Shown: positions 6,921 to 64,000 of the stretch, in pieces
How positions within the stretch are numbered: position 1 is the first letter of the stretch
Layout of the letters: the number at the start of each line of letters is the position of its first letter
NCBI GenBank assembly: GCA_964390745.1
Contig: CAYMIK010000001.1
Span: 48,670 to 112,669 of the forward strand
DNA length: 64,000 bases
Source: an uncultured Candidatus Saccharibacteria bacterium
GTDB lineage: Bacteria > Patescibacteriota > JAUYIX01 > CAYMIK01
Direction of reading: 5' to 3'
Program-made: the position numbers and the translations under genes
The notes under the pieces: generated by a model
The model's database searches: none
The model's input: only the letters and a program-made list of their open reading frames with translations
Told to the model about the DNA's origin: nothing

Positions 6921-6933
6921 CGAATTTGCAAGC

Positions 6934-8012: not shown

Positions 8013-8100
8013 TCAAGAAAATAAGAACCAAGCCGGGCCTTGCGACGTCGCGGATGCGTCGTCGAAAGGTCACCGGCTGGCGCCAAGCTCTTGGGCTTGG

Positions 8101-8523: not shown

Positions 8524-9029
8524 TCGACTCTCCCTGCTCTTGTGCCAAAAGGCCGAAGTCGAGGTGATCCCGACATTCGTAAGAGACTCATCAAGGTATC
8601 ACAAATACCATCTTTTGTCAACCCTCTATTTAACGCATATTTAAGCCATTTTTTAGGGATAATTAATCTTTGGGCCGCACAATGAGTAGTAGCACCAAAG
8701 TCGCAATTATTATGCGAGGAGTCGGGGATTGGGAGGTGAAATAAGGACCTCGAACCCACCCATTAAGCTTTGGCTTAACCAAGCCTAATCCCCAGGGGTG
8801 TGGAAAAAATGGCCAAAAAAGCCCTTCGTGGAGGCCGAAAAATGAGGCTTAAATAAGCCCAAAAACCCCCTTTTTCTTGACATGAGCCGCCACGCATGAT
8901 AACCTTCGACCTAACAATTGCATACAAGGTCAAGGCCTAAAGGTTCATAGTTTATTACCTAATTAACCAACGAACCACGAACCAGAAGGTCTTTCGTACA
9001 ACCCCCGAAAAAGGGATTGTGCACTGTTC

Positions 9030-39941: not shown

Positions 39942-40024
39942 ACAACCTCAAATTATTACCCTTGTATTCTAGCGCGAATCGAGAAAAATGTCTTGAGGTT
40001 GGCGATTCTCTGAGCGTAGTTATT

Positions 40025-40064
40025 TTGCAAAAAGAATCACACCGGCTCGGGGCAGCGAGCCGGT
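40025..40064 (-). terminator. Rho-independent terminator of island C gene
   Basis: Minus strand reads CACCGGCTCG-ctgccc-CGAGCCGGTG followed by TGATTCTTTTTGC. Confidence 0.7.
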
Positions 40065-40137
40065 GAAGAAGGGATGCGCGGAATTTCGCGCGATAGTACT
40101 GATTGTCATCTGGCCTGCCCGCCAGAGAGCCCAGCTC

Positions 40138-40485
40138 TCAGCCTGTACGCTGCCGCTGCTCGTTCGCCGAGCAGAGCACGGCAACGGTGCCACGCACATC
40201 GCGGAGGTGGGCCTCCGCGTTCGGCATCCTGTCCCTGATCATGAAGATCAGTTCGGGGTAGGCGGGCGTAAGCAGCGTGTCCACCTCGACGATCACGGTC
40301 GTTGCGCCCAGCATGAGCGCAGCGTTGGGACCCTGTGCGAACCGGGTCAGTACTGCCGCCAGGTTCCGTACGAGCTCCGGGCGCGCGTGGCCATCCAAAG
40401 GATCGGATGGGTCCCGGGCGATGCCCCGCAGTGAGAACCGCGGGCATCCATTTTCGAGACTTCCTTCGGGAATCGTGATTTCCAT
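40138..40485 (-). CDS. Hypothetical 115-aa cytoplasmic protein encoded in a high-GC cassette (island C)
   Basis: MEITIPEGSLENGCPRFSLRGIARDPSDPLDGHARPELVRNLAAVLTRFAQGPNAALMLGATTVIVEV... with RBS GGAGGAAA 4 nt before the ATG at 40483-40485. GC3 very high versus neighbours. Possible roadblock/LC7-like fold, a weak guess. Confidence 0.55.
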   Translation of the reverse strand: MEITIPEGSLENGCPRFSLRGIARDPSDPLDGHARPELVRNLAAVLTRFAQGPNAALMLGATTVIVEVDTLLTPAYPELIFMIRDRMPNAEAHLRDVRGTVAVLCSANEQRQRTG

Positions 40486-40513
40486 CGTTTCCTCCAAACA
40501 CGGGGTTTAACTC

Positions 40514-40542
40514 AGTATATGAAGGCATTAGCATCCTGTCAA
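40514..40542 (-). promoter_or_regulatory. Near-consensus sigma70 promoter for island C gene (TTGACA-17-TATACT)
   Basis: Minus strand reads tgttcaTTGACAggatgctaatgccttcaTATACTgagtt, about 25 nt upstream of the RBS. Confidence 0.55.
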
Positions 40543-40611
40543 TGAACACAAAAAGAGTTCAGCGATCATGGTTGCCCAAAAGAAAGATCCAGGGTATAAT
40601 TTACAAACATC

Positions 40612-41709: not shown

Positions 41710-42010
41710 ATTGCAAAAACGGACAACTCACCACTGGCGAGATTGCCGGCGGGGAGGTATCTTGTATTTTCCCCGCGATCGCTCTGGCTGTGGCCAATGT
41801 GGCGTGGGCTAGAGCTTGGTCACGGCGGGGCCGAGCAGAGACCCGGGTGGATCACCGGAAGATTCGGGGTGTCTGTCGGCGAGCGTAAGGCGTAGCGGCC
41901 TCTGCGCGACGGGGACTTCGCGAGGTGCGGAGGTGGGCTGCGTTGGGAGCGGAGCCTCGCCGATCCCACTCCCTTGTCGGTTCCGCCGCGTGCGCAAGCC
42001 GGATTCGAAT

Positions 42011-42226
42011 TCAGGGGTTCCCACTGCTTTTCCCTCCGCGAAGGTCATCCATGCTCAGGATGAGTTTGGGGTTTGTTAGGTCCACGGCGGGACCGGCGAA
42101 GCCGAGTCCACCTCGCCCCTCGACCATCTCCCACGGATCTCGCAGGTGGTAGGGGCGAATTCGTACTTCATTCTCGGCTGTGCGTCCAGAGGATTGAGAC
42201 TTTTCTCCAGCGGGCTCGTTCTTCAT
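42011..42226 (-). CDS. Hypothetical 71-aa protein in high-GC island D (possibly the 5' part of a frameshifted longer gene)
   Basis: MKNEPAGEKSQSSGRTAENEVRIRPYHLRDPWEMVEGRGGLGFAGPAVDLTNPKLILSMDDLRGGKSSGNP with strong RBS AAGGAAGAGG 3 nt before ATG. A second ORF in the +1 frame (41809..42048) continues for 79 aa. Confidence 0.4.
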   Translation of the reverse strand: MKNEPAGEKSQSSGRTAENEVRIRPYHLRDPWEMVEGRGGLGFAGPAVDLTNPKLILSMDDLRGGKSSGNP

Positions 42227-42393
42227 GGCCTCTTCCTTCTGACAGCGATGTGAATGATGCCATGGTACACACAAAACCCCTCTTTCGTAAAGGGTACTTT
42301 TCGGCTATAATGAACGTACTTTAATGTCTGCTTTAGACATTTTTAAGGAGGAGCTGGTAGTTTCAAGGAGCGAAGTAATTAAAGAAAGGTTTT

Positions 42394-46213: not shown

Positions 46214-46873
46214 CTACTTATCGATGTCTGGATTCTTGTCCAAGTCGTCTTCTAAGATTTCATCAAGCTTCTTATCGATAGCTTCCAAATCTTTTTCAGA
46301 GGTAACCTTCTTTTCGGCCAAATCTTTCTTCATTTCTTCCTTGATCTTTTCAGCTGTTTCTTTCGTCAAAACTTCCAATTCAGGATCAGCGGCAGCAGCT
46401 TTTGCTTCTTTCTTCTTGGCTCGTTTTGCATCGCGTTCAGCTTGCAATCGTTTTACCTTCTCGGAGTCTTTCTTGATGAGCAAGAAACGCATGATTGGTT
46501 CAATGAGCTTCAGCTGCTTTTCGAGGTCAATAACCGTCCGAGGTTGCAAGTTGAGTTTCAAAACAACATACACGCCCATGTTGTGACCGTTGATTTCGTA
46601 TGAAAGTTTTTGCTTTCCCCAAATGCTCTCGTCGGCAATTTTTCCTTCGATTTTCTCAACAATCTTTCGAATGTGTTCAGAAACGGAAGCCTGCTCTACA
46701 TCGTTCACTGTTGGGGTGAGCAAGTAGGTGAGTTCGTACTGAACAGGTTCTTTATTTTCTTCTGCAGCAAAAAGTTCTACATCGGTAGCTTCGGTTTGAA
46801 GTTCCGCGTTGATATCCTTTTTTGCTTCTTCTGCTTCAACTTCTTTCGAAGCCTTGGTCTTTGCATCGGCCAT
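46214..46873 (-). CDS. rpsF: 30S ribosomal protein S6 with long K/E-rich C-terminal extension
   Basis: YELTYLLTPTV...HIRKIVEKIEGKIADESIWGKQKLSYEINGHNMGVYVVLKL... Start chosen at MADAKT (ATG 46871-46873, RBS AAAGGAAAA). The track ORF extends in-frame to 47098 through GC-rich non-coding sequence. Confidence 0.8.
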   Translation of the reverse strand: MADAKTKASKEVEAEEAKKDINAELQTEATDVELFAAEENKEPVQYELTYLLTPTVNDVEQASVSEHIRKIVEKIEGKIADESIWGKQKLSYEINGHNMGVYVVLKLNLQPRTVIDLEKQLKLIEPIMRFLLIKKDSEKVKRLQAERDAKRAKKKEAKAAAADPELEVLTKETAEKIKEEMKKDLAEKKVTSEKDLEAIDKKLDEILEDDLDKNPDIDK

Positions 46874-47116
46874 TGATTTTCCTTTATGTATAGCTAAAAA
46901 ATAGGGTCCAGACATGGGTGCCCCGCGTATAAAGGCGGGATCTGGAAGCCCCCGCAGCTTATCATTTGGGGTGTTTTTTGTCAAGAACATGGGGCAAATT
47001 CGAAGCCCCCTCGACCACGCAGTGGCGTGAGCGAAGGAGGCCCCGAAGGACAGCCGTTGGCGGTACAACTTCGGGCGCCGTCTTCTGTCTAGGGCCAAGA
47101 AGGCGGCGTTGTGCGG

Positions 47117-47272
47117 CTACTCGAGCCGCTCTGAGAGAGCATGGAAACCGAGCGCGATGACGAGTAGTGTGAATCCGGTGTAGGGCAGGTCGTGGTCGAT
47201 GAACCAGCAACCCACGCCTCCTACTTTCTCGCATGCTCGGTTGAGTGAGCTGCTAAGTGTCAGACGGTCCAT
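47117..47272 (-). CDS. Hypothetical 51-aa small membrane protein, 2nd gene of high-GC island E
   Basis: MDRLTLSSSLNRACEKVGGVGCWFIDHDLPYTGFTLLVIALGFHALSERLE. RBS GAGAGGAG 5 nt before the ATG. One TM segment. Begins 32 nt after the stop of the 185-aa gene. Confidence 0.4.
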   Translation of the reverse strand: MDRLTLSSSLNRACEKVGGVGCWFIDHDLPYTGFTLLVIALGFHALSERLE

Positions 47273-47304
47273 CGAGCTCCTCTCGTATGAGTCAGGATGT
47301 GTAG

Positions 47305-47862
47305 CTAACCTCGTGTCAGAAACAGACCCAGAACGATTGCGAAGGGGACCAGGATCATCGCGATGAGGTTCACGAAGATCCAAAACAGGTCCCTGGCGGT
47401 CAGATAGTTCAGAACAGGCCACCGGCCTCCGAAAAACAACTGATGGAGGCGACAGGCAAAACGATCGTGATGCTTCTCGAGCGGAGTCGCCGTGACGTTG
47501 TCGTCCGGCCAGCCTCGGGGAGCAAGCTTTCTGAAGACTCGCATCTTCACTGCGTTGGTCTGGTTCCTTGCACACCTCGAGAGCTTGAACGGGATTGTGG
47601 AGGCCACGAGCAGCAGAATCCCGATCATGTTGAACGGTCCCATCTTGGGGTAAGGCCGTGGTAGCCGTGTCCCAGGTGGGTCCAGGTGCATCCACCGCGC
47701 GTTGCTCGGATCGTGGGCGTCTTCAAGCAGTGGGATGGGGTTTCCGAATCCCCACGCCATGAAAGCTTCGCAGCCCCATTGAAGGAGGCCGCCTGCGAAC
47801 ATCACGATTCCAGCGAGAGAGTCCAGGAAGGGGGTGCGCTCGTCATGCAGCTTCGCCATCAT
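47305..47862 (-). CDS. Hypothetical 185-aa membrane protein (3 predicted TM helices) in high-GC island E
   Basis: MMAKLHDERTPFLDSLAGIVMFAGGLLQWGCEAFMAWGF...FNMIGILLLVASTIPF...LFWIFVNLIAMILVPFAIVLGLFLTRG. RBS AAAGGAAG upstream. High GC. No recognisable family. Confidence 0.55.
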   Translation of the reverse strand: MMAKLHDERTPFLDSLAGIVMFAGGLLQWGCEAFMAWGFGNPIPLLEDAHDPSNARWMHLDPPGTRLPRPYPKMGPFNMIGILLLVASTIPFKLSRCARNQTNAVKMRVFRKLAPRGWPDDNVTATPLEKHHDRFACRLHQLFFGGRWPVLNYLTARDLFWIFVNLIAMILVPFAIVLGLFLTRG

Positions 47863-47953
47863 GAGGCTTCCTTTCGATCGGCTCGAAGCCGAGGAATGAG
47901 CAAAACTGCCTGCAGTCTAGCAGGAAGGTGTTTTTAAAATCAAGTTTCTTATG

Positions 47954-49057: not shown

Positions 49058-49664
49058 AAAGATTAAGGAGTTCAGATGGCGAATCTACAATAGCAGCTGG
49101 ATTGCCTTCTTGCAACAGCTTTCGGTCATGGAAGCCCCAGGTAACAGCAATAGCGGGCACTCCTACTTTTGTTGCTTCCAAGATGTCTCCGAGCGTATCT
49201 GTGATAATCACCGAGCTCTCTGGGGATGCTTTATGTTTCTGCAGGAGGTACTGAATTTTTTCGTGCTTGCTTTCATGAAATTCAAAACCGAGAATTTCTT
49301 CAAATGATCCTTCGAGTCTGTGCTCTGCAAGAAATTTTTCTACGGAACTCTTTGCACTTGAGGTGACAATGTTCATACGAAAATTTTTTGAGAGACGGGA
49401 AACTACGTTCTCCATTCCGGGTACGGGGTACATACCTCGGACCCTTTTGTCATAGTTCTTTGCCCACTGCGGCTTGATGTCTTCTATGGGTACAGATGGC
49501 TTCGTGCGTATGCTATCGTAGACATTTCCTGCAAAGTACATTCTATAGTCTTCTTCTCGCGCTTCTGGTATGAATGACTGCCAAATTTCAAAGGATAATT
49601 TAAAACTATCGATGATAACACCATCAAAATCAAAGTGAAGAAGTTTTGTGTGCTTAAAAGTCAT
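49050..49664 (-). CDS. HAD-superfamily hydrolase (phosphatase-like)
   Basis: Motif I FDFDGVIIDS and 204 aa. 8-nt overlap with the ychF start. Confidence 0.6.
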   Translation of the reverse strand: MTFKHTKLLHFDFDGVIIDSFKLSFEIWQSFIPEAREEDYRMYFAGNVYDSIRTKPSVPIEDIKPQWAKNYDKRVRGMYPVPGMENVVSRLSKNFRMNIVTSSAKSSVEKFLAEHRLEGSFEEILGFEFHESKHEKIQYLLQKHKASPESSVIITDTLGDILEATKVGVPAIAVTWGFHDRKLLQEGNPAAIVDSPSELLNLFE

Positions 49665-49923
49665 GAAGATAGGCCCGTTGAATGCGAAGAGTCTATCGTG
49701 GTTTGCGGCTTTTGTAAAGCATTATAGCTTTTTCTTCGACTTCTTTGGAACCTTCGCACCAGCTTTCCTCGCCTTCGACAAACCTACCGCAATAGCTTGT
49801 TTGCGGCTCTTGAAGCGACGTGTGCGCTTTTGCTCATGCAGTTCTTTGTGCACGTGTAAACCCTTGACACGCTGCTCAATAGGGTATATTGTCTATTACA
49901 CAATAAATATTGTCTGTATAACA

Positions 49924-51807
49924 ATGAAGAACCTCTTTCGCTCGGAGACGGCCTATGAACTCCTTTCGCTTTTTACTCAAGAACCGGTACAAAAGCGGTA
50001 TCTTGCGGAGATCGCTAAGGCACTCCAAAAAGATATGGCGAATACCACTCGTGAGCTCGAGAAACTCGTGAAGGAAGAAATTCTTGTCATGACTGAAGAA
50101 AATGGAAAGAAGTACTATCGACTCAATAGTTCCAATCCATTCACAAAAGAACTCTCGGCACTTTTTAAAAAGCTCGATGATGTGTACGTGCAGCGATCGT
50201 TCCAAAACAAGTGGCTTCTTGCCGAGGATATCCCAAACATGGATCCGTTTTTTAGTATGTTGTGGATGCGCTCGTTTGTTGATGAGTTTAAAAATCCAAG
50301 CGGAGTGGCATACAAAGAAGTTGTTGGAATATTTAAGGACTACCACCTATGGTTTTTCTTTGATGAAAAAGATGCCTACAACGTGGGCGAACACATTGTG
50401 AATAAAATGGAAAAGTCGCCGGAGTTCATGGAAGAGGTGAATAAAGAGATTGTGAAGCACTCCGATAAGCTTCGAGATTTTGCTCTTACGTTGCCAGAAG
50501 AAAACCTCAAGAAACTTTCGAATAAAAAACTTTGGGAGCTGTACAAAAAACACGACGACATTCACACGGCCTACTATCAGTGGGGATGGATTCCGGTAGC
50601 TGCTGATATGTTTGGTGGCAACCTCACGACTCGAGGTAAGGAAATTCTGAAGCAAAAAGGAGTCTCCGAAGAAAAGGTGAATGAGTACTTAAATATTCTT
50701 ACACAACCTACAGCCAAGTCGGCAATCGCGGAGGAGCAAGAAAGTTTAGAGCGCATTGGTGCGTTGGTGCAGGAAGATTCAAAGCAAGTGAAAATATTTG
50801 CTGAAATATTCCGAAAGTTTAAGGAAGAAGATGTAAAAAAGTACGGCTTGTATACCCACAGCGAAGAGTATGAGAAATTGTTTGAAGAAACGGTTCGCGT
50901 TTTGGAGTCACAGATTGCTCCAAAGATCCTGAAGAAGTTACAAGAACACTTCGCCAAATACTTTTACACAAAGTTTTTGTTTACAGAAGAGCAGGGCGTG
51001 TATTCGTTTGAGCACTATCTAAAATCTTTGGTTCGGCTCGTAAACTACGAACCAAATCTGGCTGTAAAGCTGCAAGACGAATCAAAAGAATTGGCAAGAA
51101 ATGCTAAGATTCGAAGTGAACTTATAAAGAAACTCAAGCTGAATACTTCGGAGATCCGATTCTTTGATGCCTGGGGTGAATTTATGGTGACAAAGATTTA
51201 CCGAAGATTCGCTCAGCTTTTTGCTCTGTACAAGATGGTTCCCATCCTCACGGAAATAGGTGCGCGTTTTGGTCTTACGCTCAAGCAAACGAAGTTCTTG
51301 ATGTACGAAGAGATTCGCGACGGGCTCTTGGAGGATCGCGTGAACAAAGAAATGACACGACAACGCGTTGCATTCTCAGTTTTTGTGACGCGTCCTGATT
51401 CGAGCGAGTTTATTACTGGGCTTTCGGCGAAGAAGATTGCCGAAGTTGTACAAAAGGAACACATTGAACAGGTGAGTGAGTTTTCAGGCCAATGTGGCTG
51501 CCCGGGCATTGCAGAGGGTCGTGTTCGTATCATCAATGAGGCACATGAAATGTCAAAGATGCATGATGGTGACATCCTTGTAGCAATTTCTACGCAGCCC
51601 GATCTTGTTCCAGCTATGAAAAAAGCCGCGGCAATTATTACAGACCAGGGAGGCGTGACAAGCCATGCGGCCATTGTTGCGCGCGAGATGCGAACACCCT
51701 GCGTGATTGGAACCAAGATTGGATCTAAGTTGCTTCATGATGGTGACTATGTGAAGGTGGACGCAACAAAGGGGAAGGTCCTCATTATAGAGAGCGCGAA
51801 AAAGTAA
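49924..51807 (+). CDS. PEP-utilising-enzyme mobile-domain protein (628 aa) with unassigned N-terminal region
   Basis: C-terminal GGVTSHAAIVAREMRTPCVIGT is the PEP-utilising phosphohistidine mobile domain. No ATP-grasp/nucleotide-binding region is recognisable upstream. Start taken at MKNLFRSETAYELL (ATG 49924), with promoter TTGACA-17-TATATT at 49874-49902. Confidence 0.6.
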   Translation: MKNLFRSETAYELLSLFTQEPVQKRYLAEIAKALQKDMANTTRELEKLVKEEILVMTEENGKKYYRLNSSNPFTKELSALFKKLDDVYVQRSFQNKWLLAEDIPNMDPFFSMLWMRSFVDEFKNPSGVAYKEVVGIFKDYHLWFFFDEKDAYNVGEHIVNKMEKSPEFMEEVNKEIVKHSDKLRDFALTLPEENLKKLSNKKLWELYKKHDDIHTAYYQWGWIPVAADMFGGNLTTRGKEILKQKGVSEEKVNEYLNILTQPTAKSAIAEEQESLERIGALVQEDSKQVKIFAEIFRKFKEEDVKKYGLYTHSEEYEKLFEETVRVLESQIAPKILKKLQEHFAKYFYTKFLFTEEQGVYSFEHYLKSLVRLVNYEPNLAVKLQDESKELARNAKIRSELIKKLKLNTSEIRFFDAWGEFMVTKIYRRFAQLFALYKMVPILTEIGARFGLTLKQTKFLMYEEIRDGLLEDRVNKEMTRQRVAFSVFVTRPDSSEFITGLSAKKIAEVVQKEHIEQVSEFSGQCGCPGIAEGRVRIINEAHEMSKMHDGDILVAISTQPDLVPAMKKAAAIITDQGGVTSHAAIVAREMRTPCVIGTKIGSKLLHDGDYVKVDATKGKVLIIESAKK

Positions 51808-53867: not shown

Positions 53868-55610
53868 TTACTTAAAGACTCGCTTTGTCTTCACGTAAAG
53901 ATCTTTCACATCAATAAACCGGTCGGACGGCGTACTGATATTTGTGATCGAAGTCCCAGAGAGATTTCGATATGTTGGATACAAATAATTAGGGGAGTAG
54001 AGGAAGATCGTTGAAGCCCCGTTCGTAATGGTTTTCTGGATAGCTTCATATTTTGCAGCTCGATCTTTTGGATCGGTAGAAGTTCGTGCGGCAACAAGCT
54101 GCTTGTCTAAGCCTTCATCCTTCACGAATCCCAAGTTCAAACCCGGATCAAATGCTTGGCTCGAGTGCCAGAACGGATACAGATCAGCGTCTAAGCCAAG
54201 ATTTTGCGAAAACAATAATGCTTCATACTTTCGTGGGCGAATAAATGTCTGCTGAATTTCGGCGACGCTAAAGGTTTGGACTTCCAAATTTATTCCGGCT
54301 TGATTCCACGACTCTTTCAAATAATTTGCCGTCGCAACATTTTGTGGCCAGTCAGTAGTTTGTAAGTGGATGGTAAGCTCTTTGCCGTTTTTGTCGTAGA
54401 AGAAGCCGTCATCACGCTGTTTGTAGTCAGCGGAAGTGAGCTGTTTTTTTGCAGCTTCAATATTAAAGTCATACTTTGTAACGTTGTCGGTGTATCCCAA
54501 AAATCCTGGCAAGAGTGGGCCGTTCACGGGAATGCCGTGACCCTTCAAAACATTTTGAATCAGGCCGTTCTTGTCTGTCGCGTAGGAGATTGCACGGCGA
54601 ACTTCAATTTTTGAGAGTGCCGAATTTTCGGAGGGATTCAAAAATACAGAAGTTGCTACCGGTAATCGATATTCGTGAATATTCACTCCTTTGCGAGTAA
54701 TAGAACCGAGACTTGTTGCATCGATGTAGTTCATACCGTCTATCTTTTTTCGATTGAACGCATTGATCATATCATCGGGCGTTTGGTAGAAGTCGAATTC
54801 GATCGAATTGATCATGGGTTGACCACCGTAGTAGTCTGTATTTTTATCCAACGTGAACGACAAGATATCGCCCGCGCTCTTATCTTTTTTCAATTCAGAA
54901 AACTTAAATGGACCAGTTCCGATTGGTTTGTGGTTTTCTTCCACCACGGTTGCATTGGTTGCTGGAACGCTCTGCCAAATGTGTGCTGGCAAAATTCCAA
55001 AGGTGAGTGTGGTCAAGAACGGAGCAAACGCAGAAGGCAAAACAAACTTTACGGTGTTGTCATCAACCTTGGAAACAGTAATTCCTTTCAAGCTTGGACG
55101 AAGTGGGCTCGCGTAGTTCTGATCTTGAATGGCGCCAACAGTAAAGATAACGTCATCAGCGCTGAATGTTTCGCCATCATGCCACTTCACGCCTTTGCGT
55201 AAGTGAAACGTATAGGTTTTTTTGTCAGAGGAAATATCGTAGCTTTCTGCGAGGTCAGTCACAACTTGGTAATTTGCGTCTACGCGCATCAAGCCAGAGA
55301 AAACAAGCGCCGAAATGTCTCGGTCTGCATCAGTGGTTTGGTTATACAAAGGGTTAATGAACTTTGGTTCACCAACAATGCCTTCTTTGTAGACTCCGCC
55401 TGCGATTCCAATCGCGTTTGTTTGCGAGATGTACCAGCGGTAGACCGACAAAAGAGCACCAGCAACGACAACGATAAGTGCGATCGTGACGATCAACTTG
55501 TCGCCCGTTTTGAAAAGTTTTGGTGTGTGAACAATCTTTTTCCAAAACGAAGGTTTGCTTCCATTTACAGGAAGCGGTGCAGGATTTTGGGTTGGGGAAG
55601 AATTCAACAT
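53868..55610 (-). CDS. ABC transporter substrate-binding protein, family 5 (OppA/DppA-like), membrane-anchored
   Basis: 580 aa. N-terminal TM anchor. Mature domain starts with the SBP_bac_5-like GGVYKEGIVGEPKFINPLY... Confidence 0.75.
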   Translation of the reverse strand: MLNSSPTQNPAPLPVNGSKPSFWKKIVHTPKLFKTGDKLIVTIALIVVVAGALLSVYRWYISQTNAIGIAGGVYKEGIVGEPKFINPLYNQTTDADRDISALVFSGLMRVDANYQVVTDLAESYDISSDKKTYTFHLRKGVKWHDGETFSADDVIFTVGAIQDQNYASPLRPSLKGITVSKVDDNTVKFVLPSAFAPFLTTLTFGILPAHIWQSVPATNATVVEENHKPIGTGPFKFSELKKDKSAGDILSFTLDKNTDYYGGQPMINSIEFDFYQTPDDMINAFNRKKIDGMNYIDATSLGSITRKGVNIHEYRLPVATSVFLNPSENSALSKIEVRRAISYATDKNGLIQNVLKGHGIPVNGPLLPGFLGYTDNVTKYDFNIEAAKKQLTSADYKQRDDGFFYDKNGKELTIHLQTTDWPQNVATANYLKESWNQAGINLEVQTFSVAEIQQTFIRPRKYEALLFSQNLGLDADLYPFWHSSQAFDPGLNLGFVKDEGLDKQLVAARTSTDPKDRAAKYEAIQKTITNGASTIFLYSPNYLYPTYRNLSGTSITNISTPSDRFIDVKDLYVKTKRVFK

Positions 55611-55828
55611 TAGATAAAGAGAGCTGCTACAGACGCTCCGAAAAAGAGGATAGCGAGTACGATCGTAATAATAAACAGTGCCTTTTCGGGACCTCTTTTT
55701 TGGAAAATGATTGTCTCGCCACCAAAGGTGTTGCCAATGCCCGTGCTCTTGTTCTGTAGCAAAACAGCTACAGTCATGAGGACTGCGAGTACAATTTGAG
55801 CAATAGTAATGATCTGAGTAATAGGCAT
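55610..55828 (-). CDS. secG: Preprotein translocase subunit SecG
   Basis: MPITQIITIAQIVLAVLMTVAVLLQNKSTGIGNTFGG... 72 aa. 1-nt overlap with the downstream SBP gene start. Confidence 0.75.
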   Translation of the reverse strand: MPITQIITIAQIVLAVLMTVAVLLQNKSTGIGNTFGGETIIFQKRGPEKALFIITIVLAILFFGASVAALFI

Positions 55829-56108
55829 AGATTCAGTCGGGGGCGGGTTTCGGACCCGCTTGGGACATTTCAGGTAACACGAAGACAATAGCACGAAGGG
55901 TGTGATTTGTCAAGGTTGGAGAGTTTTTTGAGGTACGTTTGAGGGTGAGTTCAAGGGGCGGAAAATGGACGAAAAACAAACACCGAGAAGCTTGCTGTTG
56001 CAGGGCTTCTCGGCGGAAGCCGCCTAGACTCAAAGTTATTATAGTTATGGGCTTTTTGCTATAATTCTGGTGAGACGTGAGGGGAAGGATACACGAAAAC
56101 GTGGGGAC

Positions 56109-56137
56109 TTGACAAAGTCCTTACAATCGTGTATAAT
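56109..56137 (+). promoter_or_regulatory. Perfect-consensus sigma70 promoter (TTGACA-17-TATAAT) driving island F gene
   Basis: ggggacTTGACAaagtccttacaatcgtgTATAATagcc. RBS GGAGGAA at 56204-56210 precedes the GTG at 56215. Confidence 0.6.
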
Positions 56138-56214
56138 AGCCCGTTCACAATCTCTGTTCTGTTCCTTAACATCAATTCGACACTCGAGGTGAACATCGAG
56201 TGTGGAGGAACATC

Positions 56215-57963
56215 GTGGAAAAGCCCAAGCTTACGTGGAGCCAGGCTATGACGATTGGCGCCCTGGCCTGGGCGCAAGAAGTTCAACACGAAGTTCGAAC
56301 TATGACTCAGGAGGTTCTCGAGCGCATCCAGCAGTTTTCGTGGATCGCGCTTCGGGCTAACCTCGGGGTGTTCGCAAAGGCGTTTCTGAAGTACATCGCG
56401 CCTGCGCTCATCCCGCTCGTGCTCATGCTCGTGGTTCCTTCGGCAGTCGGAGGAATCGTGAAGCTGCTCTGTGTGCCCGTCTTCATCGCTGTCGCCCGTT
56501 GGGGCTACAAGCGGTTCAAGGCGGCGTGTTGGGACAAGCCGTGGATTTTTCTTGCGGCTTCGATCGCCATCCCTGTGGTGGCGAGCTTCGGGTTCCGATA
56601 CGCCATCCAGGCGTTCGGGTTCAAGCTCTTGCTCGTCGCGATCCCACTAACCCTGATTCGGTTCATGTGGAGTTTCGGACGTCTCACGCTCGTGCTGTTT
56701 GCGGAGACGTTCGTACTGGTTGCTGTTGTCTTCAACTTCGGCTTCCCGCGCGTCTTCAAGTGCGATGCCCAGAGGGGCGTCGAGCCTCTCGTGACTGGGT
56801 GCACCATCACCCAGAACCACATCCCGTGGAACACGATGACGATGTCGAGTATCCTCGGGGACTGGTTGAAGACGTTGCCCGGGTTTCCGGGTAACTCCAA
56901 CGTCTCCGCTACCTTCCGAGACATTTCGGTGTCTTCGGATGGCAAGGCGTTCTGGGGAGTGGCCGGATGGTCGGACACTCAGGTGGAGAAGTCCGTGGCG
57001 GTCAAGATCGATATCGCGACCCACAAGGTCATCAAGGCGATCTGGATCTATACGCCATTTACGGTTCGCTGCAGCAAAGAGTTCGGTCTCTGTTCTATCG
57101 TTTCGCAGATGGGTAATCGAGTCTATCTGATCGATGACGTCACCAACGAGGTCGTGCGAGAGTACGATCTCAGTGGGGCGATGCCAAGCTACCAGATGGA
57201 AACAGGGAGAGGAGAGATCCTTTTCCTGTGCATGCCCTCCAGCGGTATCGACCGAGAGCGCATTGCGCCGCTCGGACCAGTGGAGCAGGTTCGCTGGGAA
57301 GACACCGGCGCCTCGCTACTTCTGGGTAAGCTGGAACTGGCGACGGGAGTCTTTACGATCCAGCCGGTGAAGGGCAAGTACGACAGCGCCCTCATGGGTA
57401 AGGAGACCATGTTCGCTTCGTATGACCCGGTACATGAGAAGATCATGCTGGGTGCAACAAAGTTGGGCGTTATCGACCTCGGGTCGATGACGTACAGCAA
57501 GGTGCCTGGCAGCGGTCTCACGCAGTTTCTTCCGGGAAACACGACGGCCGGTGCCGTGGTGGATACCCGGACCGGGACCATCTACGCAAACAGACCAGCA
57601 TTCGGCATCTATAGTTACCGCTACGAGAACGGCGTGCTGCGGGTGACGGGGAAGATCTCCGTGGACCTTGGTGGGCGTCTTCTTCTGACCGATCCGCGAC
57701 GCGGATTGGTCTACAGCGCGAACTATGGGCGTGGATTTGTGGAGGTCATCGACCCTACAGTACCTAGCCCAAAGCCGATGCGATGGACGGTGGGTAACAA
57801 CATCCGTAGCCTCAAGCTTGATCTCGGCGAGAGCCCGGATGAAGACTGGCTGTATGTTGCCAGCGCGTTCGGATATACGAGAATCAATCTGAGCGAGGCC
57901 CTCGGGGAGCGTTACCTCCCGAATGTACAGACCGCGTCGAATTCGGATGCGGTCATACGGTGA
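56215..57963 (+). CDS. Hypothetical membrane protein (4-5 N-terminal TM helices) with C-terminal YVTN-like beta-propeller domain, encoded in high-GC island F
   Basis: 583 aa from the GTG at 56215; the track starts at 56200. TM helices IAPALIPLVLMLVVPSAVGGIV, FLAASIAIPVVASFGF, LLLVAIPLTLIRFMW, LTLVLFAETFVLVAVVF. C-terminal repeats resemble YVTN propeller blades (VYLIDDVTNEVVREYDL, LGATKLGVIDLGSMTYSKV, GLVYSANYGRGFVEVIDPTV). High GC. Confidence 0.6.
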   Translation: MEKPKLTWSQAMTIGALAWAQEVQHEVRTMTQEVLERIQQFSWIALRANLGVFAKAFLKYIAPALIPLVLMLVVPSAVGGIVKLLCVPVFIAVARWGYKRFKAACWDKPWIFLAASIAIPVVASFGFRYAIQAFGFKLLLVAIPLTLIRFMWSFGRLTLVLFAETFVLVAVVFNFGFPRVFKCDAQRGVEPLVTGCTITQNHIPWNTMTMSSILGDWLKTLPGFPGNSNVSATFRDISVSSDGKAFWGVAGWSDTQVEKSVAVKIDIATHKVIKAIWIYTPFTVRCSKEFGLCSIVSQMGNRVYLIDDVTNEVVREYDLSGAMPSYQMETGRGEILFLCMPSSGIDRERIAPLGPVEQVRWEDTGASLLLGKLELATGVFTIQPVKGKYDSALMGKETMFASYDPVHEKIMLGATKLGVIDLGSMTYSKVPGSGLTQFLPGNTTAGAVVDTRTGTIYANRPAFGIYSYRYENGVLRVTGKISVDLGGRLLLTDPRRGLVYSANYGRGFVEVIDPTVPSPKPMRWTVGNNIRSLKLDLGESPDEDWLYVASAFGYTRINLSEALGERYLPNVQTASNSDAVIR

Positions 57964-57976
57964 TGGAGGTTCTGTT

Positions 57977-58050
57977 CAGGACGCTGTGTCGTCCTGAATT
58001 CGCCCGGTGCGCACTCTTTTTCGAAGAGAGCGCCCGGGTTTTTCTTTTGC
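57977..58050 (+). terminator. Tandem hairpins plus T-run terminator after island F gene
   Basis: TTCAGGACG-ctgtgt-CGTCCTGAA, then GCGCACTCTT-tttcg-AAGAGAGCGC followed by CCGGGTTTTTCTTTTG. Confidence 0.55.
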
Positions 58051-58137: not shown

Positions 58138-61100
58138 ATGACAAAAACACAAATCAAAATTCGCGATTTTCACATTCGCGCTGCCCAGCTTCACGGAGCA
58201 TCTCGCGTCTTTTTATTATTGTATGTTTTGGTGCTCGAAATGTTCGTGGCAATTCATAAGATATTTGCACACTTTGTTTTTGGCAAGCACAAAGCCTTTG
58301 AAAAGTTTGCGTGCCGCGATGTACAAGGAGCAATTACTGATTCGTATAGTGATCACGAACGGTTCCATAAAATTTCACTGAGCAGTGTCACGATGGTGGC
58401 TCTTGTTTCGGTAATGTATGTTTTAGCTGGCGTTCTCGCACCTGGCCCACACATGCTTCGGGCTGCAAGTTTGATCGTGAATGACAACGGTGATGCTGGT
58501 GACGGTACATGTGATTCTTCGTGTACCTTGCGAGATGCGATAGAAAATGCCAACTCGAGCCCAGGCGCTGATGTTATTACATTTGACTCGGCAACAGTTA
58601 TTACGCCTACTTCGCCATTACCAGATATTACAGAAACAGTTTCCATTGATGGCGATGTTGATTCTAATGGCACTCCAGATGTTGTGATAAGTGGTGGCGC
58701 TGCCGGTGCAACGAGCGGCATAACGATTGCCTCAAATGACGTTACGATTTCTGGTCTCGTGATACAAGGATTTTCCGGTGATGGTATTTCTATCATTGGT
58801 AGCAACAATGTTATTACGCGTAACTACATTGGAACGAACTCAACAGCAACTTCGGCGGCTACGAATACAGGTAGTGGTATTACTATTGCCGATGATACGA
58901 TTGATCCAAGCTCGAACAACGTCATTGGCGGAACGAGTTCCTCTGATCGAAATATTATTTCGGGGAATACGCAAAACGGCGTAAAGCTGTCCGGAAGCTT
59001 TGTGACGGATAACGATGTTCAGGGTAACTACATTGGCACCAATGCTGCTGGAACCTCGGCCATTCCAAACGGACAATCAGGTATCCGAATTGAATCAAGC
59101 GCTTCGTCAAATATTATCGGTGGTAGCGTTGGGGCCTCAGATCCTGGAACTGCACCAGGAAACCTCATCAGCGGAAACACCTCAAGCGGAGTCATTCTTT
59201 TGAGTGACAACAACCAGGTGGCCGGAAATATTATTGGACTCAATGCGTCGGGCACGGCAGCTCTTGCCAACTCGGACGGATTTACCATTGCCGGATCTGG
59301 CAATACGGTTGGCGGTGCAAGCACATCGTTTAGAAACATCATCAGCGGCAATGCGAACGGTGTAACAATTACAGCCGGCGATAACACGGTCCAGTATAAC
59401 TATATTGGAACCAATATTGCGGGAGACACGGCAAGAGCTAATAGTTCCCGTGGCGTTCGTGTGAGTGGCGGACTCACGAATATTTACAACAACCTCGTTG
59501 CCGGAAATCCAACACAGCTGTATCTGCAATCAGATGCAGACATTAAGGGTAATATTGTGGGGTTGAACGCAGTAGGATCCGCAGCATTTGGAAGTCAGCA
59601 AAACGGCGTATATATCTTGGCAGGAACAGTAACGGTTGGGAGTACTTCGAGCTCTGATCGAAATGTTATCGCCGGAAACTCAAGCATTGGTATTGCGGTT
59701 ATTGGCAGCGGTCCCCGCGCAACCATTCAAGGAAACTATATCGGAACCGATGCAACCGGGGCAACGGCCATAGCAAACGGTATGGGGATTGGCATGGTTG
59801 GTGGCGCAACGGGCAACAGCATCGGCGATACAAACTCAGGAACTTCGTGTACGGGTGCATGCAACGTTATCTCTGGCAACACCACCGACGAAATTTTTAT
59901 TGATAGTGGTGCGCATGGAAATACTGTCCAAGGAAATTATATTGGCGTGAATGCTCTTGGCACAAAGCCAATCAGCTGGACAGCTTCGGGAGCTAAGCAT
60001 TCAATTCACATTCAGGACAACTCCTACAACAACCAAATTGGTGGTTCGCGGGATGAGAATGTTGCTGAGCTGGGCGATGGAAATCTTATTTCGGGAAATC
60101 AGCAAAGTGGCGGTGCCGGCATATATATCACACTGCACTCTTTCAACGGCACAACAGGAAATCCGATTCTTGGAAATCTTATAGGTACCAGCCCAACAGG
60201 TGCATTTCAGGATTCTTACAACAATACAACCGGTGCCGCCGGCGCTGATGGCATCAATGACTTCCGGAATGCCGTAGGATTTTACTGCATCGATTCTTCG
60301 TACTGTTCTCTTGGTGACGGAACAACGGCGCATGCAAACCTCATATCTGGAAACGGCGTGGGTGTTCAGATTTCGAACAATCCATTGTCAACGTATAATC
60401 TGAACTACATTGGTACCAATAAAACGGCCACACTTCCGTTTTCGAATTCAGCATATCAGGGCCAGAATGGTCTTCACTTTGGGATCTACTTTAATGGTGG
60501 TCACGACGAATCTGGATCTGTTGTTGAAAATAATATTATCTCTGGATTTTACAAGGCCGATCCTGATCTTTCGGGTGGTGTTTCTGCTGCCAGTATGGGC
60601 ATTGCTGTTGGTCTTGGAAGTTCTGATGGTTCAGGTGAACTCCGCAATATTACGTTCCTTCGAAACAAAATAGGAACTGATATTGACGGCACATCGGTCA
60701 TAAAAAACAATGTTGGTTTTTATTGCTTCAATGGTGGCAACGTTGAAATTGGGAGCAGTGATATTAATGATCGCAATATTATTTCTGGCAACGGCGAGGG
60801 TGGCGTAGGTGGGCCATTTGAAACACTCGCAGCTGATGGCTATTGCCGGGATATTACAATAGAAAAAAATTACTTCGGTACGGATATCAACGGAAACACA
60901 TCGCTTGGAAACGGTAATTCGTTGAACTTTTTGGCGGGCTCTGGTGCAATAACTGTCCAAGATAACGTTATTGGTAGCTCGGAAGAGGATGGCGTTCGAA
61001 CGGTTTCTTCAACGAACAACTACATTGGAAACAAAATTGGCGTTGGCGCCGATGGTACGACAAACCTTGCAAATGCCGCAGATGGCATCTCTGTTGATAC

Positions 61101-64000
61101 TTCGGGTGCCATGGTGCTCCAAAATAATGTCATTCGGAACAATGGACAGCGTGGTGTTCATCTTACGGAAGCCTCGGCGACCATTGACGGCAATACTGTA
61201 AGTAACAATACGGGTGATGGAATCACTCTGGATGATTCGAACTCTTGTACCATTACCGACAACACTATCACTGATAACGGTAATGTTGGTATTAATATGT
61301 CCGGAGTATCCGAATCGGCAATCGGTACAACGGGCCATGGCAATACGGTGACGGGTCATGCGGTAAGTGGCTTGGTACTTTCGAATGTATCACACACCAA
61401 TACCGTTATCGATAACACCATTTCTTCCAATGACGGCGATGCAAATGGCGCCGGGATATCGATCAATGAAAGTTTTAATAATACCGTTTCGAATAATACC
61501 CTCGATCAAAATGCTCGTGGCGTACTGCTCAGGGCAAGCGACTCGTTTTCTACCTACGAAAACACAGTGACGCAAAACGAAATCACCAATAGTACTGGTT
61601 CTGGTGTTGTGGTGCAAAATCCACAAACACAAGGAAACACCATTTCCAATAACACCATTTCGGCCAACCATGCCTATGGTATTGATAATGAAACCACCCA
61701 CTCGTCAGACGATCCAACCCCCACCGGCGGAGACAACGTTATCGACTCCAATACGCTGTCCCTCAACCTCCTTTCGGGAATTCGAAACTATGGCGCATCG
61801 CCAGCCATTACCAATAATACATTTACACAAAACGTTAAGAGTGGTGTTTCGAACGTTGTAAATTATGGTGCGAACACCAATCCAAGTACTGCTTCTGATG
61901 ACACAACGTCGCTGCCAGAAATTACCGGGAATACATTCAACGGAAATCAAGAATACGGAATATACAGTCTTGATACGGCGCCCTCAAACAAAGATACTTT
62001 GAAGGATGACAATACCTTTGATGACAACAATACGCTTGGGCGCATTCGCCAAGAGTGGTATGGACTTGTGAAAGTTACAGTAGAAGGCGTGATACAAGAT
62101 GCTGCTTCTGTTGATATTTTTGATAACACCGAAAGCGATAACCTTGCTTCGTTGGTTACTGCTGCTACGGGATATGCACCTGACACGGCAAGCCTTACCG
62201 ATGTGCAAACCTGGGAAGTGGTTCCCGAATTTCAAGTATCACCCACAGGAACGCTCCAAGCATTCTCGCCGCACAAAGTTATTGCTGCTGTTGATGGTGA
62301 CGCTGAAACGGTAACTTTTAAATACAATGGAGTAAATGACTCGGGCGAAGTAGGTCCAACGGGTTTTGGAAATACAAACGGACGCTACCAAGTAGCGTTA
62401 GTGAATATCACGAAGGTGCCCAACACCGTTCATGGCACGGTGTTTACTGACGTGAATGAAAATGGCACCAACGATAGCGAGGCTGGCAAGTCTGGTGTTG
62501 CAGTAACGTTGTATAAGAGCACGGACACAACCTTTGGAAGCGATACAGCAGCTGCTACAACTACTACGGCAAGTGACGGTACCTACACGTTCAGTGGGGT
62601 AGTGCAAGGAAATTATTTTGTAAAGATTTCCACTCCAACGAATTATGCCGATACCACTTCGAATCCAGGAAGTTTGATTACTTTTGCGAGCGAAAATGAA
62701 ACGAAGACACAAGATTTCGGAGTTGTTGCTGTGCCGCCTCCGCCGCCAACACCAAGCGGAACTATTCGGGGAACGGTATTCCAGGATACAAATAAAAATA
62801 AAGTTTTCGAAGGCGGAGAATTGGGCCTTTCGGGAATAGAAGTTTCGTTGTATAACGACTCGAATGCCAACGGTGCGTTTGACTCGGGCACCGATCAACT
62901 TTTAGCAACGCGAACAACGAACACGAGTGGTGTGTATCGTTTCATAGGCATAGGACTTCGAAATTACTTCCTTACCGTCCAAACTCCAACGAATCGTTCG
63001 CTTACCACAGCAAATAGCCCAACCGATCTTTTGAAACTCGATGTTGACGGCGAAACCCTGACGCAAGACTTTGGTTTTACTGCTTTGCCAGAAACTCCTA
63101 CTCCGGAACCCAAACCAACCCCCAAGCCTGGCTCTGGTGGTGGAACAAAACCCATCATTAATCCTATTACGGGTGGTTCTAATGTTGGCATTGTGGCACC
63201 ACGAACAGGTGCCAGTGCAACGAATTCTTTTGTTGCTATTGCAGCTGTTGTCTTGGCCGCCATTAACGTACTCACGGCTGCCGGTTCAGGCTTTCCGCTT
63301 TTGTTGCGTCTCCTCTTTGACCTTTTCACTGAGCCTTTGATGGCATTGTTCGGTGCAAAGAAAGAACCATGGGGCAAACTCTTTGACTCCATCACTAATG
63401 AGCCTATCGATTTGGGTATTGTTCGTTTGTACGATGCAAATACCATGAAGCTTACTGCAACTGCCGTAACGGATCGAACAGGACGTTTCAAATTTTTCCC
63501 AAAGAGAGGCTCGTATGTAGCGAAGGCAGACAAGAAGGGATATATTTTCCCTTCAAGCCTTTTGAAATCCGCTCCAGGATATCAGAAGCCAAACCTGTAT
63601 TTTGGTGATCGATTTAATATCTCTGACCAAAATCAAACCTTCAATCGTGATGTTCCTCTTGATCGTGAAAGCAAAGAGGGAAGTGAGAAACTTCTTTTGA
63701 AGCTCCATGCAAAACGAGTATTGCGAAACGTCTTTGCCTACTCGGGTATTGTTATTGGAATCGTGAATATGGTTGTCTTGCTTTCGTGGCTGACGTTTGG
63801 CATCTTCGTTGTGCACGTTATTCTCTTTGCATTCTTCTGGCGAATAACCCGGCCACGTAAACCAAAAACGTGGGGCATTGTCTATGACGAAGAAACAAAG
63901 AAGCCTATTGCGGGCGCAGTGGTTCGAATCTTTGACCAACGGTTTGGACGATTACTTGATGCCACGCTCTCGAATCGCAACGGAAAATTTGGATTCCTCA
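58138..64000 (+). CDS. Giant secreted/surface protein (>1950 aa, 3' end beyond window): right-handed parallel beta-helix repeats, tandem Cna-B/SdrD-B-like domains, Pro/Thr linker, C-terminal TM segments
   Basis: Frame-1 ORF from the ATG at 58138, open to the window end; absent from the ORF track because it is edge-truncated. DGTCDSSCTLRDAIENANSSPGADVITFDS motif. Repeated NYIGTN...GN.I.GN beta-helix rungs over about 3 kb. GTVFTDVNENGTNDSEAGKSGVAVTLYKS and GTVFQDTNKNKVFEGGELGLSGIEVSLYND are Cna-B-type domains. Hydrophobic C-terminal segments. Confidence 0.8.
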   Translation, partial: MTKTQIKIRDFHIRAAQLHGASRVFLLLYVLVLEMFVAIHKIFAHFVFGKHKAFEKFACRDVQGAITDSYSDHERFHKISLSSVTMVALVSVMYVLAGVLAPGPHMLRAASLIVNDNGDAGDGTCDSSCTLRDAIENANSSPGADVITFDSATVITPTSPLPDITETVSIDGDVDSNGTPDVVISGGAAGATSGITIASNDVTISGLVIQGFSGDGISIIGSNNVITRNYIGTNSTATSAATNTGSGITIADDTIDPSSNNVIGGTSSSDRNIISGNTQNGVKLSGSFVTDNDVQGNYIGTNAAGTSAIPNGQSGIRIESSASSNIIGGSVGASDPGTAPGNLISGNTSSGVILLSDNNQVAGNIIGLNASGTAALANSDGFTIAGSGNTVGGASTSFRNIISGNANGVTITAGDNTVQYNYIGTNIAGDTARANSSRGVRVSGGLTNIYNNLVAGNPTQLYLQSDADIKGNIVGLNAVGSAAFGSQQNGVYILAGTVTVGSTSSSDRNVIAGNSSIGIAVIGSGPRATIQGNYIGTDATGATAIANGMGIGMVGGATGNSIGDTNSGTSCTGACNVISGNTTDEIFIDSGAHGNTVQGNYIGVNALGTKPISWTASGAKHSIHIQDNSYNNQIGGSRDENVAELGDGNLISGNQQSGGAGIYITLHSFNGTTGNPILGNLIGTSPTGAFQDSYNNTTGAAGADGINDFRNAVGFYCIDSSYCSLGDGTTAHANLISGNGVGVQISNNPLSTYNLNYIGTNKTATLPFSNSAYQGQNGLHFGIYFNGGHDESGSVVENNIISGFYKADPDLSGGVSAASMGIAVGLGSSDGSGELRNITFLRNKIGTDIDGTSVIKNNVGFYCFNGGNVEIGSSDINDRNIISGNGEGGVGGPFETLAADGYCRDITIEKNYFGTDINGNTSLGNGNSLNFLAGSGAITVQDNVIGSSEEDGVRTVSSTNNYIGNKIGVGADGTTNLANAADGISVDTSGAMVLQNNVIRNNGQRGVHLTEASATIDGNTVSNNTGDGITLDDSNSCTITDNTITDNGNVGINMSGVSESAIGTTGHGNTVTGHAVSGLVLSNVSHTNTVIDNTISSNDGDANGAGISINESFNNTVSNNTLDQNARGVLLRASDSFSTYENTVTQNEITNSTGSGVVVQNPQTQGNTISNNTISANHAYGIDNETTHSSDDPTPTGGDNVIDSNTLSLNLLSGIRNYGASPAITNNTFTQNVKSGVSNVVNYGANTNPSTASDDTTSLPEITGNTFNGNQEYGIYSLDTAPSNKDTLKDDNTFDDNNTLGRIRQEWYGLVKVTVEGVIQDAASVDIFDNTESDNLASLVTAATGYAPDTASLTDVQTWEVVPEFQVSPTGTLQAFSPHKVIAAVDGDAETVTFKYNGVNDSGEVGPTGFGNTNGRYQVALVNITKVPNTVHGTVFTDVNENGTNDSEAGKSGVAVTLYKSTDTTFGSDTAAATTTTASDGTYTFSGVVQGNYFVKISTPTNYADTTSNPGSLITFASENETKTQDFGVVAVPPPPPTPSGTIRGTVFQDTNKNKVFEGGELGLSGIEVSLYNDSNANGAFDSGTDQLLATRTTNTSGVYRFIGIGLRNYFLTVQTPTNRSLTTANSPTDLLKLDVDGETLTQDFGFTALPETPTPEPKPTPKPGSGGGTKPIINPITGGSNVGIVAPRTGASATNSFVAIAAVVLAAINVLTAAGSGFPLLLRLLFDLFTEPLMALFGAKKEPWGKLFDSITNEPIDLGIVRLYDANTMKLTATAVTDRTGRFKFFPKRGSYVAKADKKGYIFPSSLLKSAPGYQKPNLYFGDRFNISDQNQTFNRDVPLDRESKEGSEKLLLKLHAKRVLRNVFAYSGIVIGIVNMVVLLSWLTFGIFVVHVILFAFFWRITRPRKPKTWGIVYDEETKKPIAGAVVRIFDQRFGRLLDATLSNRNGKFGFL

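Follow-up and report, generated by a model that had tools for sequence, protein, structure and literature searches.

In a 64,000-nucleotide stretch of contig CAYMIK010000001.1 (hereafter the window), a GC-rich gene lying between secG and a giant surface-protein gene encodes a polytopic membrane protein with a seven-bladed propeller of the YVTN/YncE type. The interpretation that we consider best, and in which our confidence is about evenly balanced, is that the product of this cassette is a membrane-anchored propeller acting as a non-enzymatic surface binding or scaffold module, and that its coding sequence is one swappable allele of a conserved slot. Attachment to other cells is the presumed way of life of ultra-small Patescibacteria, and little is known of the molecules at this interface; the propeller and the adjoining giant protein would form a concrete candidate pair for host or phage recognition. 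What is new here is an unannotated transmembrane (TM) propeller family, its fold being a known one, together with a swappable GC-rich allele in a fixed, regulated Patescibacteria slot and a leader motif. The slot also poses a compositional puzzle that bears on gene flow into reduced genomes, as G+C content at third codon positions (GC3) is kept near 70% in genomes of 45% GC.

The cassette gene and the fold of its product

The longest plus-strand reading frame of the cassette spans positions 56200-57963 (587 aa), and a GTG codon at 56215 gives a product of 582 aa, one residue short of the 583 aa stated in an earlier note made from the letters of this DNA, whose GTG start and high GC content stand. 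This start is supported by the N-terminus MEKPK, which resembles the MDKRT or MDKRK of relatives, and an NCBI record holds an identical protein of the same length as the GTG-start product. The ribosome-binding site seen by the note is present as GGAGGA, five nucleotides before the GTG. GC content climbs from ~45% to 58-60% exactly across the open reading frame (ORF), with sharp borders; the gene averages 58% GC against 47% in the rest of the window, and its GC3 reaches 73% against 41-50% in six host genes. Minus-strand ORFs overlapping the gene are artefacts: the plus frame has homologues with E-values down to 7.5e-83 and an in-frame codon-position GC periodicity, which rules out the possibility, raised in the note, that the gene itself might be an antisense artefact. 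The cassette is thus a real, intact gene that, as had been proposed, brings its own promoter, ribosome-binding site and terminator and so forms a self-contained transcription unit. The gene is probably expressed autonomously and strongly and would specify a cell-surface protein.

The ~60 N-terminal residues are predicted to be helical and are followed by hydropathy peaks at residues ~61-94 (one long or two short helices), 109-129, 133-152 and 157-177, in agreement with the four to five N-terminal TM helices noted previously. The loop at residues 95-108 holds five lysine or arginine (K/R) residues and is therefore likely to be cytoplasmic, which would bring the chain outside three TM passes later. 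In most family members the loop that precedes the last TM segment is K/R-rich, and the 25 residues after that segment are K/R-poor. In the domain that follows, cysteines C286 and C293 are invariant and C183 is conserved in at least 90% of members, C183 and C196 being lost only in clusters P0007 and P0009. The conserved cysteine pairs fit an oxidising environment outside the membrane, and the propeller probably faces outward.

A single-sequence AlphaFold model was unusable (predicted local distance difference test score, pLDDT, of 43). With an 11-sequence alignment, AlphaFold2 folded residues 185-565 with a pLDDT of ~90 into 28 strands forming seven four-stranded blades, and returned a helical TM part at low confidence. 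The product is hence modelled as a polytopic anchor carrying a seven-bladed YVTN/YncE-like propeller, the fold that structure prediction had been proposed to check. Searched against PDB sequences, the family profile matched the YVTN S-layer protein 1l0q (E = 1.3e-5), Lp49 (1.9e-4) and YncE (8.6e-3). The YVTN-type extracytoplasmic propeller described in the note therefore holds as a distant kinship, but the window protein itself scores under the curated cut-off of the repeat model TIGR02276 (16.8 bits against 27.85, E = 0.0048, residues 498-515), a model that reaches E <= 0.1 in only two of the 11 family members. TIGR03866, a "PQQ-dependent catabolism-associated beta-propeller protein" model (PQQ, pyrroloquinoline quinone), matches three of the 11 members (best E-value 2.7e-8), as does 7_blade_YncE (NF052280; best 2.6e-4), and neither model matches the window protein.

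With the YVTN proteins, represented by Methanosarcina mazei 1l0q and Leptospira Lp49 (3bws), the window protein shares seven blades of ~40-residue repeats, similarity to solved propellers of this kind as seen in the family-profile matches, a predicted cell-surface location and, in blades 5-7, the signature G-x-R/P ... D-x-x-x-x-L-Y-x-x-N-Y-x-x-G-x-V-x-V-I-D. It differs from them in its polytopic TM anchor, 1l0q being an S-layer protein with PKD domains and Lp49 a lipoprotein. Escherichia coli YncE (PDB 3vgz, 3vh0 and 7seu) differs in architecture as well: YncE and TIGR03866 proteins are soluble, secreted forms of ~350 aa with a cleavable signal peptide, whereas the window protein (16% identical to YncE) has 582 aa, a 4-5-TM anchor and an additional cysteine-bracketed hairpin.

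The statement in the note that such a fusion has no obvious assigned function agrees with our searches, in which Pfam gave no match for the window protein and the anti-phage defence (PADLOC) and phage (PHROGs) libraries none for any of the 11 family members. Two of the functions that it offered fare less well. A membrane-tethered envelope enzyme, be it a lactonase, a phytase-like phosphatase or a PQQ-type enzyme, would suit a seven-bladed propeller, a fold that includes lactonases, and could claim a weak sub-threshold phytase-like match (E = 0.007, 15 bits against a cut-off of 440) and the sole Pfam Lactonase (PF10282) match, found in one relative at E = 0.37. Yet the invariant columns of the family are glycines, R488, R531, Y504, P75, P384 and cysteines, all repeat-structural or disulfide positions, and include no conserved His/Glu/Asn/Asp metal-ligand or catalytic set; the top fold matches (YncE, Lp49 and WD40 scaffolds) are non-enzymatic, and the extreme sequence turnover of the family would be unusual for an active site. 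We regard an enzyme as very unlikely.

The receptor or sensor of the note encounters a different difficulty, as the protein has no cytoplasmic output domain, only the ~60 helical N-terminal residues. A TM sensor or transport accessory, for instance a partner of the SBP_bac_5 substrate-binding protein (SBP) or of an MmpL-like transporter (compare the MmpL3/TtfA-stabilising propeller), would make sense of a polytopic membrane part joined to an outside propeller, of the SBP_bac_5 gene lying two genes off in Patescibacteria slots, of the three family members matching TIGR03866, named for PQQ-dependent catabolism clusters, and of a weak match to the MmpL3/TtfA stabiliser (E = 0.23). These model matches fall far under curated cut-offs, however; no kinase, regulator, ATP-binding cassette (ABC) permease or ATPase adjoins the gene, and family members outside the Patescibacteria have no SBP neighbour, so that such a role appears quite unlikely. 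A non-enzymatic binding or scaffold platform, the role that we favour, would agree with both the fold matches and the invariant columns.

A conserved slot and the exchange of its alleles

phmmer, run exhaustively against 1.84 billion cluster representatives (E <= 1e-3), delimited a rare family of 11 clusters, the window protein and ten relatives, all of 504-603 aa and the same architecture; no relative carries an informative name, and further paralogues adjoin some of them. Word-indexed homologue searches returned only the protein itself, whether the query was the single sequence or the profile of the family, and no GTDB representative genome encodes a relative detectable with the single-protein query. 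Six of the 11 clusters, mutually 20-30% identical (49% for one pair), occupy the same slot in related Patescibacteria assemblies: besides the window protein, these are P0009 (locus L092), P0004 (L088 and L089), P0007 (L094), P0003 (L006) and P0006 (L090). The last five adjoin a ~2000-aa NosD/Beta_helix/SdrD_B giant gene, the secG-SBP-RNase J genes or both. The giant neighbour, which had been described as unrelated, belongs to this setting, as giant genes of the same kind adjoin the family gene in L006, L088, L090 and L092, the window giant protein being 38% identical to that of L088 over a 793-residue alignment. The homologue and neighbourhood search that the note called for has thus found both relatives and a shared position, and gene order in these assemblies indicates that the space between secG and a giant beta-helix/SdrD_B gene is a conserved slot dedicated to the cassette.

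Neighbouring genes in the window encode SecG, a TM-anchored SBP_bac_5 protein, RNase J, YchF, S6, RecA and a RodZ-like protein, and the window further carries rpoB, rpoC and genes for CWB2-type wall-binding proteins and FtsK. The best matches of its RNase J among GTDB representatives are metagenome-assembled genomes of Magasanikbacteria and Uhrbacteria, at only 53% identity, and these genes identify the host as a Patescibacteria bacterium with kinship to both groups. L092 derives from a fairly close relative: in comparison with it, RNase J is 98% identical, YchF 95%, a HAD protein 87%, SecG 83% (the same value as for L088) and the SBP 77%, and DNA similarity to L092 stops at position 55917. 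Of 80 GTDB Patescibacteria loci, 62 have an SBP homologue and 47 a SecG homologue at most 10 kb from RNase J, and none has a relative of the cassette protein there.

This last count, together with the sharply bordered rise in GC3 and a closest homologue (P0002, 36% identity) on a contig of 64-72% GC, would fit a one-off reading of the "island" of the note: a foreign gene that arrived by chance with a foreign promoter and terminator and has no integrated role in the host. The occupation of the slot by six clusters in related assemblies largely refutes this view. The promoter, leader and terminator layout, described below, is conserved among the alleles, has a host-like low GC content and is absent upstream of the high-GC P0002, and the region between secG and the giant gene contains no integrase or transposase ORF and no significant flanking direct or inverted repeats, with no tRNA gene in the window. 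Of the usual marks of a genomic island, then, atypical composition with sharp borders is present, whereas mobility hallmarks are lacking and no empty site was seen in L092, L088, L094, L006 or L090, all of which carry a family member. Among the explanations considered, a one-off insertion is the least probable.

Within the slot, the coding sequence behaves differently from its surroundings. The slot protein of L092 is only ~24-26% identical to that of the window, and the slot gene is co-directional with secG in L092, L088 and L094 but with the giant gene in the window, indicating that the cassette is inverted in the window genome. From 14 nt past the stop codon, L092 and L088 are 96.7% identical in DNA for 720 bp; identity is 72% over the 5' end of the giant gene and the promoter, up to the GTTCGC box of the leader, and no DNA similarity is detectable in the coding sequence, the encoded proteins being 21% identical. 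Such sharp breaks imply gene-sized allele replacement rather than uniform divergence. All alleles are compositionally atypical relative to their neighbours, with a GC3 of 74% in L092, 75% in L088, and 66% and 66.5% in L094 and L090, against 34-46% in neighbouring genes; the slot gene of L006 is milder (57% against 46%).

An alternative is that the slot genes are true orthologues evolving fast in place under diversifying selection, their GC content being kept high by a local process, for example GC-biased gene conversion at a hot spot for recombination. The conserved slot and regulatory region are in line with this idea, as are the divergence values for the window and L092 (synonymous divergence, dS, of ~1 in flanking housekeeping genes, nonsynonymous divergence, dN, of ~1.05 in the propeller) and the divergence of the neighbouring surface proteins, at 77% identity for the SBP and ~38% for the giant. 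It is difficult to reconcile with a coding sequence that cannot be aligned between L092 and L088 immediately next to nearly identical DNA, with an equally divergent giant gene that keeps the GC content of the host (GC3 34-38%), and with the grouping of the window protein and P0004 each with a high-GC, non-slot protein instead of with other slot alleles. In-place evolution consequently seems improbable to us, although of the rivals it deserves the most weight.

The grouping with high-GC proteins derives from a neighbour-joining tree of the ectodomain, which pairs the window protein with P0002 (bootstrap 100), P0004 with P0010 (86) and P0007 with P0009 (100). P0002 and P0010 both come from run SRR1027651, and the neighbours and upstream region of P0002 are not of Patescibacteria type. 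In contigs of 59-71% GC the family is native in composition, with L097 and L001 likewise of high GC. These native high-GC tandem paralogues and the P0002 and P0010 pairings favour transfer from high-GC bacteria; the coding sequences most likely came from high-GC lineages and would have moved from these into the slot, perhaps more than once or perhaps as the remainder of an old paralogue array after differential loss. Two such arrays were seen: L095 carries three tandem paralogues of 502, 555 and 496 aa at 652-5387 (68-71% GC), and L097 carries P0010 and a partial paralogue in tandem at 5418-8116. Arrays of this sort, in bacteria of ~67-71% GC, lie near genes for radical S-adenosylmethionine (SAM)/B12 enzymes, multihaem cytochromes or a MopE/CARDB copper protein.

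O-antigen and capsule loci are known for atypical GC content and for exchange by flanking homologous recombination. The slot resembles these hypervariable surface-antigen loci in having conserved flanks around deeply divergent alleles at one position, an atypical composition common to all alleles and sharp similarity breakpoints. It differs from them in that a single gene is exchanged and not a biosynthetic cluster, in that its GC is atypically high and not low, and in that promoter and leader RNA are kept across alleles, one cassette being inverted. The hypervariable gene described in Gracilibacteria concerns a repeat region in a surface protein (PMC6851277), which is not the same phenomenon as allele replacement at a slot.

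Promoter, leader RNA and terminator of the slot genes

The textbook TTGACA-17-TATAAT promoter reported in the note is present, agreeing with the consensus at 12 of 12 positions, and is the sole perfect match in the 64 kb (two matches with at most one mismatch, against 0.22 expected). In relatives, TTGACA-17-TATGAT lies at the same distance from the start codon. An upstream extended -10-like box, a possible second promoter (P1), is kept as GCTATAAT ~50 nt 5' of the -35 element in the window, L092, L088 and L090. The -35 element itself sits in the loop of a short palindrome (window 56103-56118; L092 7896-7916; L088 7896-7914) whose arms vary by allele, GGACTT/AAGTCC in the window and GGGCTT/AAGCCC in L092; this palindrome could be an operator or a small hairpin.

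The -10 element is followed by a GTTCAC box at the predicted mRNA 5' end, which reads GTTCGC at identical spacing in L092, L088, L006 and L090; the combined pattern TATNATN5GTTCRC occurs once in the window against 0.05 expected. The leaders of the slot genes then form an 8-bp hairpin 32-40 nt after the GTTCRC box, abutting the ribosome-binding site. Its stem is different in all five alleles (ACACTCGA, CATTCTGG, AATCTCGA, CCTTCCGC and GCGCCCGC), and each stem pairs with its own second arm at 8, 8, 8, 8 and 7 of 8 positions, compared with ~4.4 in cross-combinations, and two-sided changes affect all but one of the eight positions. The conserved loop, GYGAACA, can pair with the GTTCRC box, to which it is complementary, and there is one compensatory pair: GTTCAC/GTGAAC in the window and GTTCGC/GCGAAC in the other alleles. 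L090 shows a variant in which GTTCATT, just past its GTTCGC box, pairs with the start-codon region instead. In 1.56 Mb of loci, mostly from Patescibacteria, a hairpin with this loop motif placed in a leader was found only upstream of the propeller family. In Rfam, nothing matched the segment 55600-58300 at E <= 1, nor any part of the window at gathering score. The covarying leader motif is an undescribed one. Scanning of Joint Genome Institute (JGI) metagenomes with the promoter-box-loop pattern returned one match, which we judged to be due to chance (a contig of 37% GC without similarity to the slot loci), and a minimum-free-energy fold of the window leader occluding the ribosome-binding site was not significant (z = -1.8).

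Downstream of the gene lies the double-hairpin terminator of the note, its two hairpins followed by TTTTTCTTTT (fold of -42.3 kcal/mol, z = -3.4). The two-hairpin layout also appears in L092, L088, L094 and L090, and hairpins are in tandem in five of six alleles. The promoter and leader layout is common to the slot genes whose upstream DNA lies on the contig, an architecture that, with the filling of the slot in six related assemblies, argues against a one-off foreign insertion as the origin of the "island" of the note. On the other side of the spacer, a secG promoter-like site TTGACA-17-TGnTATTGT (55913-55885) is conserved in L092 and L088, and with a secG start at 55828 this site suggests that secG and the cassette are under divergent promoters within the 386-bp spacer. 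The listed 94-aa secG ORF probably starts at that ATG (73 aa), given that the Pfam match begins at residue 28.

Structured leaders of this kind have a known counterpart. The ompA and ermC leaders are 5'-terminal stabiliser stem-loops of bacterial mRNAs, and like them the slot leader is structured near the mRNA 5' end and lies directly upstream of the ribosome-binding site, in a genome that encodes RNase J. It differs in its pseudoknot-like arrangement, in which the loop of a hairpin further downstream would pair with the predicted 5' end, and in the lack of an Rfam match. Tucking the 5' end into a hairpin loop beside the ribosome-binding site would probably stabilise the mRNA or tune its translation.

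The preferred reading can be put together from these parts. A bundle of 4-5 TM helices would anchor the disulfide-stabilised, seven-bladed YVTN/YncE-like propeller outside the membrane. The coding part would be the swappable allele, exchanged as GC-rich sequence by recombination between relatives and inverted in the window genome, while the promoter, 5'-end box, leader hairpin and terminator layout are retained. The propeller would then probably work with the neighbouring giant surface protein at an interface with host cells or phages, and a role at such an interface would explain its diversification.

Several observations weigh against this reading. No annotated homologue gives a function, and we infer the surface-binding role from the sequence and the model; the topology likewise draws on hydropathy, the positive-inside rule and cysteines, with the TM part of the model at low confidence. 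Family members from outside the Patescibacteria have other neighbours (multihaem cytochromes, a MopE/CARDB protein, GH38, radical SAM enzymes), so that the link to the giant protein holds only within the Patescibacteria lineage. The tree is deep and star-like, most of its nodes being weak and the deeper ones unsupported, and the dS and dN values given above would allow fast in-place divergence for the window and L092 pair. It is also hard to picture repeated foreign coding sequences arriving under one conserved, low-GC leader. The leader covariation comes from five alleles, and the box-loop pairing includes one compensatory change.

A bolder version is that the slot is "pre-wired" for expression, with its consensus promoter, loop-pairing leader and terminator, beside an adhesin-like giant gene and has repeatedly captured and exchanged propeller paralogues from a high-GC lineage, possibly that of the host cell, and that five other GC-rich islands of the window (A to E, described below) are further slots. 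We consider this speculative and rather improbable. If true, such pre-wired slots would let an episymbiont exchange the surface proteins of its host interface in modular fashion.

Table 1. Positions of the cassette, its regulatory elements and its flanking genes in the window.
Feature	Position	Strand	Evidence
Upstream extended -10-like box TGCTATAAT, possible second promoter P1	56057..56065	+	Conserved in relatives
Sigma-70-type promoter TTGACA-17-TATAAT, -35 within small palindrome GGACTTGACAAAGTCC	56109..56137	+	12/12 match
GTTCAC box, 5 nt past -10, predicted mRNA 5' end	56143..56148	+	Complements leader-hairpin loop
Leader hairpin ACACTCGA-GGTGAACA-TCGAGTGT, immediately 5' of ribosome-binding site	56180..56203	+	Covariation
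Shine-Dalgarno GGAGGA, 5 nt 5' of GTG	56204..56209	+	Read from sequence
Coding sequence, 582 aa, predicted polytopic membrane anchor and extracytoplasmic 7-bladed propeller	56215..57963	+	
Predicted membrane domain, residues ~61-177, 4-5 TM helices	56395..56745	+	Hydropathy, K/R counts
Predicted extracytoplasmic domain, residues ~183-565: Cys-bracketed hairpin (C183, C196), then 7 blades	56761..57909	+	
Tandem-hairpin intrinsic terminator and T-run	57974..58049	+	Hairpins 57974-57999, 58002-58039
secG, conserved flank, likely start ATG 55828	55610..55828	-	Pfam SecG
Giant surface-protein gene, >1954 aa, runs off window	58138..64000	+	Open frame; Pfam Beta_helix, NosD, SdrD_B

Neighbouring genes and further GC-rich islands

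The five other high-GC islands of the window lie at 1751-3650, 7951-8600, 40001-40550, ~41750-42300 and 46851-47950, and have 53-60% GC against a background of ~45-47%. In island A, four minus-strand ORFs of 112-129 aa stand in tandem and show codon-position GC periodicity; island B contains a 140-aa ORF with apparently one TM segment, and island E a hydrophobic 185-aa ORF. Islands A-E gave no match in Pfam or Rfam and have no sequence in common with one another; as Rfam is empty across the window, they are not known RNAs. A high-GC island (55-57%) also lies beside ychF at 16051-17700 in L092, the same position as island E in the window, to which it shows a faint protein match (33% over 60 aa), and L094 contains a GC-rich EamA gene at 6625-7461 with a GC3 of 69%. 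The lineage may thus generally carry GC-rich inserts that change fast and keep to fixed positions.

Differences in gene content were also seen around the slot. At 49648-51807 on the plus strand, between the HAD-like gene and RNase J, the window carries a 719-aa gene with a phosphoenolpyruvate (PEP)-utilising mobile domain that is absent from L092, where a 26-aa remnant match remains. A 68-aa call at 2544-2750 on the minus strand of L094 looks like an antisense mis-call over secG and resembles an ORF antisense to secG in the window.

Further large genes are found around the RNA polymerase genes. Two proteins, one of 1225 aa and one of 1054 aa, are encoded after rpoB and rpoC in the plus-strand segment 24243-31186 and carry K319L-like PKD domains and triple CWB2 cell-wall-binding domains, and a 1911-aa ORF without a Pfam match precedes rpoB at 10805-16540 (plus strand). 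The predicted CWB2/PKD proteins and the 1911-aa ORF point to a Gram-positive-like, S-layer-type envelope.

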